Numbered from the stretch's first letter, positions 1-6,102 are shown. The stretch is DNA of 51,328 bases from Thermostichus sp. DRC_bins_24 (GCA_039794845.1 JAUQVK010000024.1:1-51328), one strand, 5' to 3'. Notes: generated by a model from the sequence alone, not told the origin. Numbers and translations: made by a program.

Positions 1-360
1 GGCTTCTTCCACCCAATAGCTGCCGCCCGTATAAAAATGACCGCCGTGAAACTCTGGCTCAGGGTCTGCTTCTTGCCGCAAGCCTTGGGGATCCAACTGC
101 AGTTGCCCTTCTGGATTCAGGCGGATCCCTTGGGTTGACCAATCTAGAAACCCCCGTGGAGCCTGCCAGCGGTGAAATCCGGTGCGATAGGCAGTGGAGT
201 CGGTCTGGGTTTCGGCTTGCATCGACAGGGCTTGCATCGACAAAATTAGGGGAACAGACTGTGCTGGCGTGGGCAATCCGGGCAAGAGCAGTAAAAACCC
301 GCTGAACAGCCATGGGATCCCCCGCCAATGGCCCTTACCTCTGGTGAGCATTGTCCTCAT
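1..360 (-). CDS. N-terminal part (runs off the window edge) of a probable secreted protein, possibly peptidase C39-like
   Basis: Hand translation from ATG at 360: MRTMLTRGKGHWRGIPWLFSGFLLLLPGLPTPAQS...FHGGHFYTGGSYWVEEA, open to base 1 with a signal-peptide-like start. Not in the ORF track. Family guess is from recalled similarity only. Confidence 0.55.
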   Translation of the reverse strand, partial: MRTMLTRGKGHWRGIPWLFSGFLLLLPGLPTPAQSVPLILSMQALSMQAETQTDSTAYRTGFHRWQAPRGFLDWSTQGIRLNPEGQLQLDPQGLRQEADPEPEFHGGHFYTGGSYWVEEA

Positions 361-368
361 CCCCCCCA

Positions 369-992
369 CTAATAGCGCGATACCGCAGGATGTCCACCAA
401 TGTACCAGCGCCACGGGATCTCAGCTCCTTGCGTGATGCCGATGCGGGTGGTTTGAACGATGGGTGCCTGGGATTGTGTGGGATCCAGGGGGGATCCTTC
501 TAACCAAAATCCCTCTTGATGGGGGGCCACCTCCTCCAAAGGCCAGCCATTGTGAGACCGATCAATTCGCAAGGCTTGACACAATAACCCCGGCCCCGCC
601 CCCACCCGTTCGGGCTTGCCCCGTTTCTTGGCAGGGATCCACTCGGGCACTTGATCCAGTTGCACCGCCCGAATCAAGACCGCGGCAGGGATCCCTTCCG
701 CTTCGGTGACGATGTTCAGGCAATGGTAAATGCCGTAAATGAGGTAAACGTACAGATGTCCCGGCGGGCCGAACATGACCCGGTTGCGTTCGGTTTGACG
801 GCGGTAGGCATGACAGGCGGGATCCCCAGGCGCATAAGCTTCTGTTTCCACGATCTGGGCCCGCAGCTGCCGCCCGTCGGCAAATTGGCGCACAAGTACC
901 ATGCCCAAGAGGGCCGGCGCCACCAAGGGGGCCGGTTGGCTCAGCCAATCCACAGCAAGGCAGCCCTCAACCCCCAGCAATCGCCGGGACAA
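369..992 (-). CDS. mpg: DNA-3-methyladenine glycosylase (MPG/AAG family)
   Basis: Motifs [40 protein letters not shown]. True start is probably downstream of the TTG at 992. Confidence 0.93.
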
Positions 993-1242
993 TGCTCACC
1001 TCATCCCCATCCTGTAGAGGGGTGTTGGATCCCTCCAGGAAGCGAATGTCTTCGCTGTTCACGTAGAAGTTGACAAAGCGGCGCAGTTCCCCACTCTCAT
1101 CACACAGGCGCGCCTTTATCCCCGGGCAGTGATGTTCCAAAGAATCCAGCAATTCCCGAATCGTGGATCCCTCACAGTTCACCACCGCTTGATCTCGGGT
1201 GAGCTTCTGTAGAGGAGTGGGGATCAAAACTTTTACCGCCAT
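967..1242 (-). CDS. MoaD/ThiS/CysO family ubiquitin-like sulfur carrier protein
   Basis: [11 protein letters not shown]...[16 protein letters not shown]...IVPAIAGG with a C-terminal Gly-Gly. Confidence 0.93.
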
Positions 1243-1280
1243 AGCCAAATGCTCTCGTCCATCCTAAAAACGTCAAAAAA

Positions 1281-1793
1281 TCAGGGCAGCAACACCCCGT
1301 CAATGCCGTGAATTACACCGTTGGCCACAGGGATATCCCCCACATTCACATTGGCCCCATTCACGGTAATGCTGCCATCGGATCCCACCTGCACCTGTAC
1401 GGGTAAACCCGCCAGAGTGGTGAGGGTTGCCGATTGGCCCGGCTGCAAATCAAACGAAGTGATCCGCCCCGGCACCACATGATAGGTGAGAATGCGGGTC
1501 AATTGGTCTCGGTTAGCCGGCTGTAACAAGCTCTCCACCGTACCCGCAGGCAGCTGCCCAAAGGCGACATCAGAAGGGGCAAAGACAGTGAAAGGCCCCG
1601 GGCCCGCCAACGCCGTGTTCAGCCCCGCTGCCTGCAAAGCCGCCGCAAGAGTGGAGTAGCTGCTGGGCAAGGTTTCCAACTCAACGGGAATCGTGTTGAG
1701 CCCCTGGGGTTGAGCAACGGGGGCGAAAGCAAAGGAGGCAACTACTGCCGCTGCTACCGGGATCCAGCGCTGAATAGGGTTAAAAACAGACAT
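1281..1793 (-). CDS. Secreted fasciclin (FAS1) domain protein
   Basis: Signal peptide, GPFTVFAPSD, ILTYHVV, NGVIHGIDGVLLP. Confidence 0.93.
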   Translation of the reverse strand: MSVFNPIQRWIPVAAAVVASFAFAPVAQPQGLNTIPVELETLPSSYSTLAAALQAAGLNTALAGPGPFTVFAPSDVAFGQLPAGTVESLLQPANRDQLTRILTYHVVPGRITSFDLQPGQSATLTTLAGLPVQVQVGSDGSITVNGANVNVGDIPVANGVIHGIDGVLLP

Positions 1794-1847
1794 TGTGCAA
1801 GGCTCCTGTGGGAGTTGAGCATTATCCGAATATTTTAATATTTCTTC

Positions 1848-1866
1848 GTTAAGAATTTTTTAAGAA
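1848..1866. promoter_or_regulatory. Direct repeat GTTAAGAA/TTTAAGAA in the AT-rich promoter of the fasciclin gene (OmpR/RpaB-like box)
   Basis: Two near-identical octamers 11 bp apart in an AT-rich intergenic region. Confidence 0.35.
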
Positions 1867-1888
1867 GCGGCCAAGGAGCCCAGAGCTC

Positions 1889-3205
1889 TTAAACCGATAC
1901 CTCTTGCCAGTCCAGTCGCTCCAGGGTGCGGGCCCGCTCCAGGGCCTGTTCAAAACTTTCGATCTTGGGTGAGATCAACAAGGGGTGCCCCACATGGGGT
2001 TGAATCGCCTCCTGGGTTTTCAAGCCATTGCCGGTGATGTAAGCAACCGTGACGGCGTCAGGATCGATCTGGCCGGACTCGGCCAGCTGTTTGAGCACGG
2101 CAATGGTGGTGCCACCGGCGGTCTCGGTAAAGATGCCTTCGGTTTCGGCAAGGAGTTTGATGCCCGCCACAATGTCTGCATCAGAGGCGGCTTGAATTTG
2201 CCCACCGGTTTTGCGGGCGATATCCAGAGCATAGATCCCATCGGCGGGGTTGCCGATGGCAATGGACTTGGCAATGGTATTGGGTTTCACCGGGGTGACA
2301 AAATCCCGCCCTTCTCGAAAGGCTTGGGCAATGGGTGAGCACCCCTCTGCCTGTGCGCCGTTGAAGGTAACGGGCTTATCCGCCACCAGGCCCACCTTCA
2401 CGAATTCCTGGAAGCCCTTGTAGATCTTGGTGTACTGGGATCCAGAAGCCAAAGGCACCACCACGTGATCCGGCAGTTGCCAGCCCAGTTGCTCCGCCAC
2501 TTCATAGGCCAAGGTTTTGGATCCCTCGGAGTAGTAGGGGCGCAGGTTAATGTTGACGAAGCCCCAGCCATAGCGATCCGCCACTTCGGAGCAAAGGCGA
2601 TTCACCTGATCGTAGTTGCCCTCCACTGCCATCACCGTCGGGTTGTAGATCAGGGATCCCAACACCTTGCCAGCTTCCAAATCAGCCGGAATAAAAATGG
2701 TGCAATCCAAACCGGCATGGGCCGCAATCGCTGCGGTGGAGTTGGCCAGATTGCCGGTGCTGGCGCAAGAGACCGTGGTAAAGCCCAATTCTTTGGCCCG
2801 CGTCAGGGCCACCGATACCACCCGATCCTTAAAGCTGAGGGTGGGCATATTGACGGCATCGTTTTTAATGTAAAGATTTTTCAACCCCAGCCGCCGACCC
2901 AGTCGTTCTGCCTTCACCAAGGGGGTCATGCCCGTACCCACATCGATGGGCTTCTCAGAAGTGACGGGCAGAAAAGGCCGGTAGCGCCAGATGGAATGGG
3001 GCCCCGCCTGAATGCTTTGACGGGTGACGGTGCGCTTCAACCAGTCGTAGTCGTAAGCCACCTCCAGTGGGCCAAAACACAGCTCACAAACGTGTTTGGC
3101 GACAGGCTCATACTCCGCCCCACATTCCCGACAGCGCAAACTGCTGAAGCCCACTTTTGGAGAGTCGGCCTTGGTGAGAGTGGGGTTGGAAAGGGTTTGA
3201 GTCAT
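1889..3205 (-). CDS. thrC: Threonine synthase family PLP enzyme (clade associated with sulfur carriers)
   Basis: PTLSFKDR PLP-lysine motif, SCASTGN, EGSKT, N-terminal CxxC...CxxC. Confidence 0.88.
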   Translation of the reverse strand: MTQTLSNPTLTKADSPKVGFSSLRCRECGAEYEPVAKHVCELCFGPLEVAYDYDWLKRTVTRQSIQAGPHSIWRYRPFLPVTSEKPIDVGTGMTPLVKAERLGRRLGLKNLYIKNDAVNMPTLSFKDRVVSVALTRAKELGFTTVSCASTGNLANSTAAIAAHAGLDCTIFIPADLEAGKVLGSLIYNPTVMAVEGNYDQVNRLCSEVADRYGWGFVNINLRPYYSEGSKTLAYEVAEQLGWQLPDHVVVPLASGSQYTKIYKGFQEFVKVGLVADKPVTFNGAQAEGCSPIAQAFREGRDFVTPVKPNTIAKSIAIGNPADGIYALDIARKTGGQIQAASDADIVAGIKLLAETEGIFTETAGGTTIAVLKQLAESGQIDPDAVTVAYITGNGLKTQEAIQPHVGHPLLISPKIESFEQALERARTLERLDWQEVSV

Positions 3206-3266
3206 GAGAGGTCTCAGAGGTGGGAATGGGTGAGCGCTAGATCTTGTTTACCCATCATTGAGTCGA

Positions 3267-3295
3267 ATCCTATCACCCGGGATCCCCCCCGTCAA
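3267..3295 (-). promoter_or_regulatory. sigma70-type promoter of the thrC-like gene
   Basis: Minus strand TTGACG-N17-TAGGAT with an extended -10 TG. Confidence 0.7.
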
Positions 3296-3297
3296 CC

Positions 3298-3322
3298 AAT
3301 CCCGATTATTTTAGTCGGGATT
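3298..3322. promoter_or_regulatory. Palindromic operator AATCCCGA-N9-TCGGGATT next to the -35 box
   Basis: Perfect 8-bp arms 2 bp upstream of the -35 box; resembles Rrf2-type sulfur-regulon boxes (inference). Confidence 0.65.
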
Positions 3323-3330
3323 AAGCTTGG

Positions 3331-4047
3331 CTAAAGGGTATCGGGATCCACGCCCAAGTCTCGCAGCCTCTGGGCTAGGGCTTCTGCTCGACGACGGGCC
3401 TCATCCCGTTCTTGTTGAGCCTGGTTCCGTTCTTGCTCTGCCTGCAGGGCTCGTTGCCGCTCCCGTTGCCGTTGGGCCTCCCGCTCGACGGAGTTGAGAT
3501 AGGGATCCCCATCGGCGCGCCAAATGCGCAGGGGTTCGCCGCTCAAATCAAAGCGGATTTGCAAGCGGGGGCTGATCCAGCCATCCAGGGTTTCGATTAC
3601 CCGCAGGCGACCGTCTTTTGAGCGCAGCCAACCACTGAGGTCATTCTTGTGGGGGTCAAACAGGTAGTACTCTTCCACGCCGTACTGGTCATAAAACTCC
3701 AGCTTGTGGGCCATCTCCTTGAGGGTATTGCCCGGCGAAAGCACTTCTACCACCACTTGTGGCGGGATCCCGTCTTCTTCCCACTGTTTGTAGAAGCCTC
3801 GGTACCCCTTGGGCCGCCCAAATACCACCATCAAATCGGGGGCCATGCGGATTTTCGGATCCCCTTCGACCGGGTACCAGAGCAGATCCCCGGCCACGAA
3901 GACATTGGGATTATCGGCCAACAGGATCTCGGTGTTGTCCTTAAAAAAGACAATCCATTCGAATTGCAGTGTATTGTCGGCCATCGGTTGACCATCGCTA
4001 TCGGGGTAAACAATGGCCTGGGGTGGAGTCTGTAAAGGAGTGATCAT
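3331..4047 (-). CDS. Uma2 family (PD-(D/E)xK-like) putative endonuclease
   Basis: [40 protein letters not shown] and a coiled-coil tail ending LRDLGVDP. Confidence 0.92.
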
Positions 4048-4170
4048 CCCAGCCTGGCGGTAGGCACTTTTTGTGGGTCGATCCTAGCCTTTGGCCCATT
4101 GCCCTATCGTTACACTGAAGAAATGGGGACTAAACAGGGATCCCGCCGATTTCATTTGGTTTGCCACTTT

Positions 4171-6102
4171 ATGCTCAGGGTTGGACAAGACACCATTGAT
4201 GTGCTCGATCACTACGATGTGGTGGTGGTGGGAGGGGGGCATTCCGGCTGTGAGGCGGCTTTGGCCTCAGCGCGGCTGGGCTGCTCTACCCTGATGCTGA
4301 CCTTGAATCTGGACAAGATCGCTTGGCAACCCTGTAACCCCGCCGTGGGTGGCCCGGCCAAATCCCAACTGGTACACGAGATTGATGCCCTCGGCGGCGA
4401 GATGGGTAAGGTGACCGACCGCACCTATTTGCAGAAGCGGGTGCTGAACCGCTCACGGGGACCGGCGGTGTGGGCACTGCGGGCCCAAACGGATAAACGG
4501 GAATATGCGCGGGTGATGCGCTCGGTGGTGGAAACCCAACCCAACCTCACCATCCGCGAGGGAACCGTTACCGACCTGGTGTTGGGGCGCAACGATGAGA
4601 TTGTCGGAGTGATGACCCACTTCGGCACGGTTTTTGGCTGTCGGGCGGTGATCTTGACCACGGGGACATTTTTGGGGGGGCGCATCTGGATTGGTCGCCA
4701 TTGGCAGGCCGCCGGACGCGCCGGGGAATTTGCTGTAGAAGGCCTGACGGAAACCCTGCAGCAACTGGGCTTTGAGACGGATCGCCTGAAAACCGGCACC
4801 CCCGCGCGTGTGGATCGGCGCAGTGTGGATTTTTCCGTGATGGAGCGGCAACCCGGGGATCCCGATCTGCGCTGGTTTAGTTTTGACCCGCAGGTGTGGA
4901 TCCCACGGGAGCAGATGGATTGTTACCTGACCCGCACCACCCCAGAAACCCACCGCATTATTCGCGAAAATCTCCACGAAACCCCCGTTTATGGGGGCTG
5001 GGTAGAGGCCAAAGGGCCGCGCTATTGCCCCAGCATTGAAGACAAAATTGTGCGCTTTGCCGACAAAGACAGCCATCAGATCTTCATTGAGCCGGAAGGG
5101 CGGGATCTGCCGGAGCTCTACATTCAGGGTTTCTCCACGGGTATGCCGGAGAAAATCCAGATTCAAATGTTGCGCTCGCTGCCGGGCCTGGAAAAGTGTG
5201 TGATGTTGCGCCCTGCCTACGCGGTGGAATACGACTATTTGCCCGCCACCCAGCTTTACCCCACCCTGATGACCAAGCGGGTGGAGGGGTTGTTTTGTGC
5301 GGGGCAACTGAACGGCACCACCGGCTACGAAGAGGCGGGGGCCCAGGGGTTGATGGCCGGGATCAATGCCGCCCGCCTGGCCCAGGGCAAATCGTTGGTG
5401 ACCTTGCCACGGGAGTCCAGCTACATCGGCACCCTCATCGACGATCTCTGCACCAAAGAGCTGCGGGAACCCTACCGGATGCTCACCAGCCGCTCGGAAT
5501 ATCGCTTGATTTTGCGCTCCGACAATGCCGATCAACGCCTCACCCCTTTGGGCCGAGAATGGGGATTGGTGGATGATCGCCGCTGGGAGCTGTTCCAAGT
5601 CAAGCAAGCCCGCATTGCCGGGGAAATTGAGCGCCTAGAAAGTCAGCGGGTGAAAGCCCAAGATCCGGCTGGGATCCACCTCAGCCAACTGACCGGACAA
5701 GCGATCAAGGGATCCGCCACCCTAGCCGAGATTTTACGTCGCAATCAGGTGCATTACCCCGACCTGCTGGCCTTGGATCTGGGGGATCCGGAGCTGGATT
5801 TGTTCGAGCAAGAGGCAGCGGAAATTGCCGTCAAATACAGTGGCTACATCCAGCGGCAACAAACCCAAATCGAGCAGGTGAGCAAGCAGTACCATCGCCC
5901 CTTGCCCGACAATTTGGACTACCAGGCCATCAGCACCCTCTCGAAAGAATCGCGGGATAAGCTCTCGGCGGTGCGCCCCCTCACCTTGGGTCAAGCAGCC
6001 CGCATTGGCGGGGTGAATCCGGCGGATATCAATGCTCTGCTGATTTATTTGGAGGTGCAAAACCACCAGAACCCCGGGGATCCCGTTGGGTCATCGCTGT
6101 GA
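4171..6102 (+). CDS. mnmG: tRNA uridine 5-carboxymethylaminomethyl modification enzyme MnmG/GidA
   Basis: [47 protein letters not shown]; likely start is the ATG at 4171. Confidence 0.97.

Follow-up and report, generated by a model that had tools for sequence, protein, structure and literature searches.

A probable MetM/MetO-type route to homocysteine in Thermostichus: a threonine-synthase-like enzyme and its sulfur carrier behind a conserved palindrome

Introduction

By which enzyme does a cyanobacterium make homocysteine when its genome holds little of the classical machinery for this step? The question is raised by positions 967-3322 of a 51,328-nt contig of Thermostichus sp. DRC_bins_24 (GCA_039794845.1, JAUQVK010000024.1:1-51328), called the window here at its full length, which is contig C24 of a 3.5-Mb cyanobacterial genome (G000) that is 99.9% complete. 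All parts of a putative operon lie there on the minus strand, namely a palindrome, a promoter-like site, the gene of a pyridoxal 5'-phosphate (PLP) enzyme related to threonine synthase (ThrC), a fasciclin gene, a hairpin and the gene of a ubiquitin-fold sulfur carrier (Table 1). Hasebe and coworkers reportedly described in 2024 that MetM and MetO of S. albulus, together with MoeZ and Mec, form homocysteine from O-phospho-L-homoserine in a thiocarboxylate-dependent manner.

An earlier note on this DNA, made from the sequence alone, had pointed to a MetM/MetO precedent from Streptomyces and had read the enzyme and the carrier as a carrier-dependent O-phosphohomoserine sulfhydrylase system that would be mis-annotated as thrC. 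The precedent is real, and is cited in the available text of PMC12172450 and of the GapMind 2026 preprint. The genomic comparisons reported here support the reading of the pair, whose function is predicted from sequence, and we consider it likely that cyanobacteria have in this locus their own form of MetM/MetO-dependent homocysteine synthesis. The route itself is already known, having been published in 2024 and, by the account given in PMC12172450, noted for cyanobacteria. What goes beyond the literature searched is a class-wide IscR-type operator in place of an S-adenosylmethionine (SAM) riboswitch, and a predicted role of the N-terminal zinc ribbon of the enzyme.

Results

The enzyme groups with riboswitch-controlled actinobacterial homologues

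The 438-aa enzyme matches the PALP family PF00291 at 242 bits and the thrC model TIGR00260 at 336-337 bits (cut-off 167). Its best sequence matches in the PDB are the threonine synthases 2ZSJ, 6CGQ, 1UIM and 2D1F, and the PLP lysine K126, in the motif SFKDR, lines up with the same motif in three ThrC structures. The CxxC..CxxC N-terminus described in the earlier note was found as C25-x2-C28 and C40-x2-C43; in an alignment of 28 sequences including actinobacterial relatives, C25, C40 and C43 are invariant and C28 is conserved in at least 90%. Cyanobacterial homologues are 75-93% identical to the enzyme, those named among the close ones coming from Thermostichus and hot-spring Synechococcus, and every source name among the 120 matches listed is "threonine synthase", which bears out the suspected mis-annotation.

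Outside the cyanobacteria, the nearest full-length relatives (representatives at 50% identity) are 49-61% identical to the window protein. One of them, from Micromonosporaceae, was used as a query and gave 80 actinobacterial loci, with no Streptomyces among them, whose enzymes again share 49-61% identity with the window protein. Of these 80 fetched loci 16 were tested with Rfam, and in all 16 a SAM-I riboswitch ends just before the gene (56-84 bits, gathering score 44.4), therefore this lineage is tied to methionine/SAM metabolism. Five actinobacterial genomes were examined further, and each also holds a canonical ThrC. The window protein is 51-57% identical to their riboswitch-linked paralogue and 31-38% identical to their other ThrC-family paralogues, while the second ThrC of G000, encoded on contig C15, is 58-64% identical to their canonical ThrC.

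A quick maximum-likelihood tree (LG+G4, with support from the Shimodaira-Hasegawa-like approximate likelihood ratio test only) was built from 109 hand-chosen rows, fragments shorter than 380 aa being left out. Besides the window protein, these were homologues from other cyanobacteria (10) and from actinobacteria (12), full-length representatives (78), canonical ThrC (6) and other actinobacterial ThrC-family paralogues (2). A branch with support 100 sets the canonical ThrC apart, and the window protein falls inside a 73-row clade (support 99) together with the actinobacterial group whose genes are controlled by SAM riboswitches.

The carrier follows the enzyme directly in 29 other cyanobacterial loci

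The carrier open reading frame (ORF) runs over 967-1248 (93 aa), ends with AIAGG followed by the stop codon, and scores 56.5 bits with the SAMP1 model. The true start is probably the ATG at 1242, because most of the listed homologues have 91 aa and cover 98% of the query. In all 29 other cyanobacterial loci compared (29 genomes), a carrier 65-80% identical and ending in AVAGG or AIAGG directly follows the enzyme. The co-oriented carrier of the earlier note, placed by it two genes downstream, was thus found where it had been described, with the fasciclin gene in between.

When the five actinobacterial genomes were searched outside the enzyme locus, the best ThiS-family protein of each shared 45-49% identity with the window carrier, and two of the five end in GGC or GGM. 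Such ends agree with the requirement for Mec in MetO maturation, as listed in the available part of the GapMind 2026 preprint. With its free GG end, the window carrier needs no trimming by Mec.

Two further observations concern the carriers. Residues C23, C39 and C47 are invariant in 18 cyanobacterial carriers, which is unusual for ThiS/MoaD proteins. Another MoaD-like protein, ending in PPVSGG, is encoded just upstream of the palindrome in 10/29 cyanobacterial loci (for example L051:860-1186), so that in those 10, among L025-L053, two ubiquitin-fold carriers flank the enzyme.

Methionine-pathway genes in the genome and in the class

Two genes of the genome score fully with TIGR00260, the window gene and that of C15. 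The latter encodes a canonical ThrC of 370 aa (329 bits) without the N-terminal zinc ribbon, so the second thrC that the earlier note proposed to look for is present. Supply of O-phosphohomoserine and use of homocysteine are both encoded (ThrB 269 bits, MetH 1493 bits). Neither MetA nor MetE was found in the 99.9% complete genome, and the sole MetX-like match scores 101 bits with MetX versus 495 bits with the uncharacterised PRK07581 family, suggesting that the genome has no true MetX. This alpha/beta hydrolase is encoded at G000:C4 (locus L012:1477-2493). About half of the cyanobacteria sampled have weak MetX-like matches of similar score (MetX model, about 80-150 bits), many of them in genomes without any MetY-type enzyme, and the protein is therefore unlikely to be a homoserine acyltransferase for methionine.

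Both partner enzymes named in the earlier note, of MoeB/MoeZ and JAMM type, are encoded elsewhere in the genome. The single ThiF-family E1-type enzyme (contig C72, 391 aa) has a rhodanese match at residues 275-383, scores 763 bits with MoeB PRK07411 and reaches 547 bits with MoeZ PRK07878, under the cut-off of 647; a JAMM/JAB peptidase of 181 aa lies in the same neighbourhood. Between this peptidase and the rhodanese-bearing E1 sits a second CysO/SAMP-type carrier (93 aa, 43% identity to the window carrier; G000:C72, L022:5238-7351, minus strand), which ends in AIAGGF and therefore needs trimming.

The distribution was followed in a class sample of 61 genomes including G000 and in a phylum sample; both are samples and not censuses, and kin in them are not independent. 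The enzyme was found in 59/61 class genomes, in one case as a fragment at the end of a contig. Other genes for the step are present in the two remaining genomes: G147 (73% complete) has MetX and a PF01053 enzyme, and G163 (1.7 Mb) has MetA beside a PF01053 enzyme. Over the class sample, MetA-like matches occur in 4/61 genomes, MetX matches of at least 340 bits in 12/61 and PF01053 enzymes in 21/61. The remaining 40/61 lack any PF01053 enzyme, the classical sulfur-incorporating type, and all 40 have the ThrC-like gene. No PF01053 enzyme was found in either of the two congeners (G122, G143) or in the neighbouring genus (G165), and all three keep the ThrC-like pair. Among the genomes of the phylum sample, the 40 others that belong to this class all match the enzyme at 715 bits or more (the window gene itself scores 990.9), and no genome of another class rises above 280 bits.

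Altered active site and a modelled complex with the carrier

Active-site residues were compared between 23 cyanobacterial and actinobacterial members and 6 canonical ThrC, with numbering through an alignment to T. thermophilus ThrC (1UIM). The clade has L153 at the position of ThrC T88, R222 where ThrC has N157, Y225 replacing ThrC R160, and ASGSx (253-257) in place of GNAGN (187-191). In T. thermophilus ThrC, residues N154, S155 and R160 presumably hold the phosphate of substrate and product, which steers water to C-beta. Loss of R160 would fit a changed reaction specificity.

A model of the complex of enzyme and carrier, computed from alignments prepared for this work, reached an ipSAE (interaction prediction score from aligned errors) of 0.64, versus 0.00 for the best control; the mark applied is reached by 116/157 solved complexes and by 2/215 mismatched pairs. 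Three runs have at least 92% of contacts in common, and the partner pLDDT (predicted local distance difference test) is at least 86. The carrier tail (residues 85-91) contacts enzyme residues 148, 153, 218-219, 222, 254 and 256, and the carrier body lies on ribbon residues 38-46. The model supports binding of the carrier by the enzyme.

A conserved palindrome beside the promoter

The arms of the palindrome (3298-3308 and 3312-3322) have 11 nt each and are 91% complementary, and it ends 2 nt upstream of the -35 hexamer. The promoter boxes are TTGACG at 3295-3290 and, after a 17-nt gap, TAGGAT at 3272-3267, with TG before the -10 box. This is a near-consensus sigma-70-type promoter, as the earlier note had claimed, with a start site predicted from sequence. 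The congeners share both boxes, and the motif TTGACG ... GTGnTAnnAT is conserved over the cyanobacterial loci. The arms are likewise conserved in both congeners, despite a different upstream gene. The same layout of palindrome and promoter, consisting of a 9+7+9 palindrome, 1-3 nt, TTGACG, 17 nt and GTGnTAnnAT, was found in 27/33 cyanobacterial metM-like upstream regions. The arms are conserved in sequence without covariation and the A/T spacer switches between A7 and T7 in sister genomes, which fits a DNA site bound by a dimeric protein better than an RNA hairpin.

To locate such sites, the class genomes were scanned with CCCGAY-W7-RTCGGG, allowing one mismatch at most. The pattern matched 58 sites in 46/61 genomes, against 26 sites for a reversed-pattern control; families f12, f18 and f36 lack the site. 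By comparison of coordinates, 44/58 sites precede the ThrC-like gene at a distance of at most about 260 bp, which places the palindrome before the enzyme gene in 44/59 of the genomes that have it; the remaining 14 are within background, since the control itself yields 26. A loose pattern with a free spacer did not outperform its control, owing to HIP1-like repeats, and the A/T-spacer version alone is specific. With a weight matrix built from 27 cyanobacterial sites, the window palindrome scores 37.6 and the next best sites of the 3.5-Mb genome 16.5 and 15.6, which leaves the genome with no other strong site; the operator proposed in the earlier note has in this way gained strong comparative support. 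The 15.6-scoring site, on C89, was set aside since it lies inside an ABC-ATPase ORF. The palindrome was also considered as a terminator of the upstream Uma2 gene, which was dropped because the congeners keep it without Uma2 and no T-run follows it, and PMC2662882, taken up as a possible paper on the palindrome, was dropped as a primer match only. Away from the enzyme gene, the unrelated genomes G135 (C8:1004-1022) and G168 (C263:28722-28740) share an identical one-mismatch variant, which may be a second target in some lineages.

The type-1 operator of E. coli IscR, 5'-ATASYYGACTRWWWYAGTCRRSTAT-3', is bound by [2Fe-2S]-IscR, which represses the isc operon (available text of PMC3899308). The cyanobacterial consensus ATACCCGACTAAATTAGTCGGGTAT fits this motif at 25/25 degenerate positions, and the window palindrome fits it at 20/25.

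Candidate regulators

Rrf2 genes occur in 60/61 class genomes, the exception being G163, which also lacks the enzyme. G000 encodes two Rrf2 proteins, A (C37) and B (C89), both without the Cys ligands of a cluster; the two score 82 and 108 bits with the CymR model, below its cut-off. Most likely, judging from the form of the site, the palindrome is bound by such a cluster-less Rrf2-family regulator. Strong orthologues of paralogue A are absent from G124, G146 and G168, and G125 has a broken copy; all four genomes keep the operator. Paralogue B (G000:C89:28025-28507) was found in 55/61 genomes; it is lacking in three fragmented assemblies and throughout family f18, whose three genomes have no operator. 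B is therefore the better candidate, by co-occurrence only. The weight matrix gave no operator-like site upstream of either Rrf2 gene in this genome, and in the 29 loci no regulator gene recurs beside the operon, only enzyme and carrier recurring in all. The literature searched describes no regulator for cyanobacterial methionine or for this palindrome, and in a 2020 review, as far as its text was available, Slr0846, the IscR homologue of Synechocystis, is given as uncharacterised (PMC7058544).

Other features of the locus

The fasciclin gene stands between enzyme and carrier in both congeners examined, and no such gene was found there in the neighbouring genus or in the 29 other cyanobacterial loci. 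It is a genus-specific insertion and is not thought to be part of the pathway. On the far side of the carrier, the 3-methyladenine glycosylase gene shares 26 nt with the carrier 3' end and is kept as a neighbour in both congeners.

Upstream of the palindrome, a gene for a Uma2-family putative restriction endonuclease (window 3331-4047) looks like a local insertion because both congeners lack it at that position. As for short words in genome G000, GGATCC occurs 11,722 times versus about 2,125 expected from base composition, and the HIP1 octamer GCGATCGC is under-represented (78 versus about 172 expected).

Table 1. Features of the enzyme-carrier locus, in window coordinates
Feature	Position	Strand	Basis
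25-bp palindromic operator candidate, IscR type-1-like / Rrf2-type	3298..3322		inverted repeat
Sigma-70-type promoter, predicted (TTGACG, 17 nt, TG-n-TAGGAT)	3267..3295	-	consensus match
MetM-like homocysteine synthase candidate, 438 aa	1889..3205	-	PF00291, TIGR00260
Secreted fasciclin-domain protein, 170 aa	1281..1793	-	PF02469, 122.8 bits
Terminator-like hairpin and T-run, right after the fasciclin stop	1282..1299	-	7 pairs, then ATTTTTTGAC
MetO-like ubiquitin-fold sulfur carrier, 91 aa, free Gly-Gly end	967..1242	-	PF02597, 71.6 bits
3-methyladenine DNA glycosylase (context only)	369..992	-	PF02245, 206 bits

Discussion

From the gene content, orthology pattern, synteny and operator conservation observed here, we propose the following chemistry, charging enzyme and control. 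ThrB would supply O-phosphohomoserine, which the 438-aa PLP enzyme would bind at K126 with elimination of phosphate. The thiocarboxylate at the Gly-Gly end of the carrier would then act as the nucleophile at C-gamma, instead of water at C-beta as in threonine synthase, and the homocysteine formed would be methylated by MetH. The sole MoeB/MoeZ-type rhodanese E1, on C72, would charge the 91-aa carrier. In the complex model the zinc ribbon would dock the carrier body, and the tail would reach the altered phosphate-binding site. Transcription would start from the near-consensus promoter, whose -35 box the palindrome abuts, and a cluster-less Rrf2 regulator would couple the operon to methionine or sulfur status in place of the actinobacterial SAM riboswitch.

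Two parts of this scheme we offer more tentatively, as one proposal that could well turn out otherwise: that a cluster-less Rrf2 protein, at best the product of G000:C89:28025-28507, senses methionine, SAM or sulfur on the IscR-type-1-like palindrome with a dedicated regulon of one operon, the main and often sole one for homocysteine synthesis in cyanobacteria, replacing the SAM riboswitch, and that the ribbon docks the carrier. If true, cyanobacteria would gain a first assigned methionine regulator, and a target would be known for an Rrf2 protein listed as uncharacterised in the 2020 review.

Experimental data exist for a Microcystis orthologue, which according to PMC12172450 is 51.6% identical to S. 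albulus MetM, with an adjoining carrier 47% identical to MetO; the same source places S. albulus metM behind a SAM riboswitch. It reports induction of both the enzyme and the carrier of Microcystis by threonine, and reversal of the thrC induction when methionine is added. The methionine-reversible induction can be read as a response to methionine starvation.

A number of points speak against a MetM/MetO-type function. In the available text of PMC12172450, the purified Microcystis orthologue acts in vitro as a threonine synthase and as a threonine deaminase, yielded no more than an unidentified peak with sulfide in an assay without thiocarboxylated carrier, and did not raise methionine when highly expressed. 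Membership in the MetM group, for which the evidence is strong but indirect, rests on actinobacterial relatives and on the quoted identity, and in the actinobacteria the carrier adjoins the enzyme in only 1/80 loci. In the window genus, the fasciclin gene and a terminator-like hairpin part the enzyme from the carrier; the hairpin, a consensus match only, stands 58 nt before the carrier start and may limit carrier expression. An Rfam scan of window positions 1-6000 (E up to 1) found neither a SAM riboswitch nor any other element, and the centre of the palindrome near -50, relative to the predicted start, would fit repression or activation alike. The result of the complex model may owe something to the existing solved complexes of carriers with PLP enzymes. 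Finally, the genome has one cystathionine-gamma-synthase-like PF01053 enzyme, on C33, as a possible alternative route.

The best of the other explanations, which we hold to be improbable, is that the enzyme is a specialised threonine synthase moonlighting as a threonine deaminase, which has been proposed for the Microcystis orthologue, and that the adjoining carrier is functionally unrelated to it. It draws on the TIGR00260 score well over the cut-off and, from PMC12172450, on the Michaelis-Menten kinetics of the Microcystis orthologue with O-phosphohomoserine, its formation of a keto acid from threonine and its 10.5-fold induction by threonine. The Vmax given in that text, 0.0176 umol per mg per min in an absorbance assay, is however very low, and the threonine induction, being reversed by methionine, fits methionine starvation. 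A canonical ThrC is kept alongside in G000 and in each of the 40 further genomes that represent its class in the phylum sample, residues at the phosphate-binding positions of ThrC are replaced, the carrier is adjacent in 29/29 loci, and the actinobacterial orthologues stand under SAM riboswitches and not under threonine control. This explanation would also leave 40/61 genomes without a known homocysteine route.

Still less credit is due to the idea that the pair makes another sulfur compound, such as cysteine from O-phosphoserine in the manner of CysM/CysO, or some other thio-amino acid. The carrier is indeed of CysO/SAMP type, the palindrome is similar to binding sites of Rrf2 regulators responsive to Fe-S or cysteine status, the two Rrf2 proteins have sub-threshold matches to CymR, and a second carrier with JAMM peptidase and E1 exists elsewhere in the genome. 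The enzyme, however, lies in the ThrC branch, with CysK and CysM models absent among its 25 NCBIfam matches listed; the closest relatives characterised by context are SAM-controlled, and the genomic gap that would be filled is that of homocysteine, not cysteine. Just as hard to credit is that homocysteine comes from the C33 enzyme acting on O-phosphohomoserine as in plants, with the ThrC-like pair redundant or otherwise employed: this enzyme matches PF01053 at 413 bits, and its best model is the cystathionine gamma-synthase PRK07811 at 453 bits (cut-off 513), which leaves it below every curated cut-off, no second PF01053 enzyme is there to act as cystathionine beta-lyase, and both congeners, the neighbouring genus and 40/61 class genomes have no PF01053 enzyme at all, the first three yet keeping the pair.

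A MetM/MetO-type route in these organisms would matter in several ways. Most sampled cyanobacteria (40/61) lack the classical sulfur enzymes for homocysteine and 59/61 have this enzyme; given this distribution and the carrier in 29/29 loci, MetM/MetO is probably the methionine route of a large part of the oxygenic phototrophs. In databases the enzyme goes under the name of threonine synthase and the carrier under that of a molybdopterin-synthase subunit, a mislabel that misleads metabolic models and may, judging from its available text, have led the 2025 Microcystis study (PMC12172450) to interpret its findings around threonine. Through the conserved operator, the regulation of methionine and sulfur in cyanobacteria becomes directly accessible to experiment.

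Comparison with known systems

The likeness of the palindrome to the E. coli IscR type-1 operator is that of the consensus, complete in the class and held at 20 of the 25 positions in the window. Unlike the E. coli operator, which lies over the promoter, the window site is upstream of the -35 box, and it precedes an operon for homocysteine, with control predicted, and not genes of Fe-S assembly. Both Rrf2 proteins here lack the Cys ligands of the cluster-bearing E. coli IscR, and, in contrast to the E. coli system, this genome has no second strong site and none upstream of either Rrf2 gene.

With canonical threonine synthase the enzyme shares the fold, the SFKDR PLP-lysine motif and, by our proposal, the substrate. 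It differs in an identity of about 37%, in the extra N-terminal ribbon of four Cys, in its constant pairing with a carrier, and, in 1UIM numbering, in T88 to L, N157 to R, R160 to Y and GNAGN to ASGSx.

In M. tuberculosis, CysM with CysO, Mec and MoeZ makes cysteine from O-phosphoserine and the carrier thiocarboxylate. The window pair resembles this system in having a fold-type-II PLP enzyme and, as proposed, sulfur from the thiocarboxylate of a ThiS/MoaD-fold protein, with phosphate displaced from a phosphorylated hydroxy amino acid. It departs from it in an enzyme that belongs to the ThrC branch and carries an extra zinc ribbon, and in that the predicted substrate is one carbon longer (gamma-replacement) and the product would be homocysteine.

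The nearest system is MetM/MetO of S. albulus. The window locus differs from it in having no SAM riboswitch, with an Rrf2/IscR-type palindrome by the promoter instead, and in a carrier that ends in a free GG without trimming, unlike MetO with Mec. The cyanobacterial carrier is fixed beside the enzyme, whereas in the actinobacteria it is adjacent once in 80 loci, and in the window genus a fasciclin gene is inserted between the two. In common with S. albulus, there is a PLP enzyme of the ThrC fold beside a canonical ThrC, with 49-61% identity to actinobacterial homologues behind a SAM riboswitch; a ubiquitin-fold Gly-Gly carrier 45-49% identical to actinobacterial carriers; and, in the same genome, a JAMM peptidase and a rhodanese E1 that would charge this carrier.

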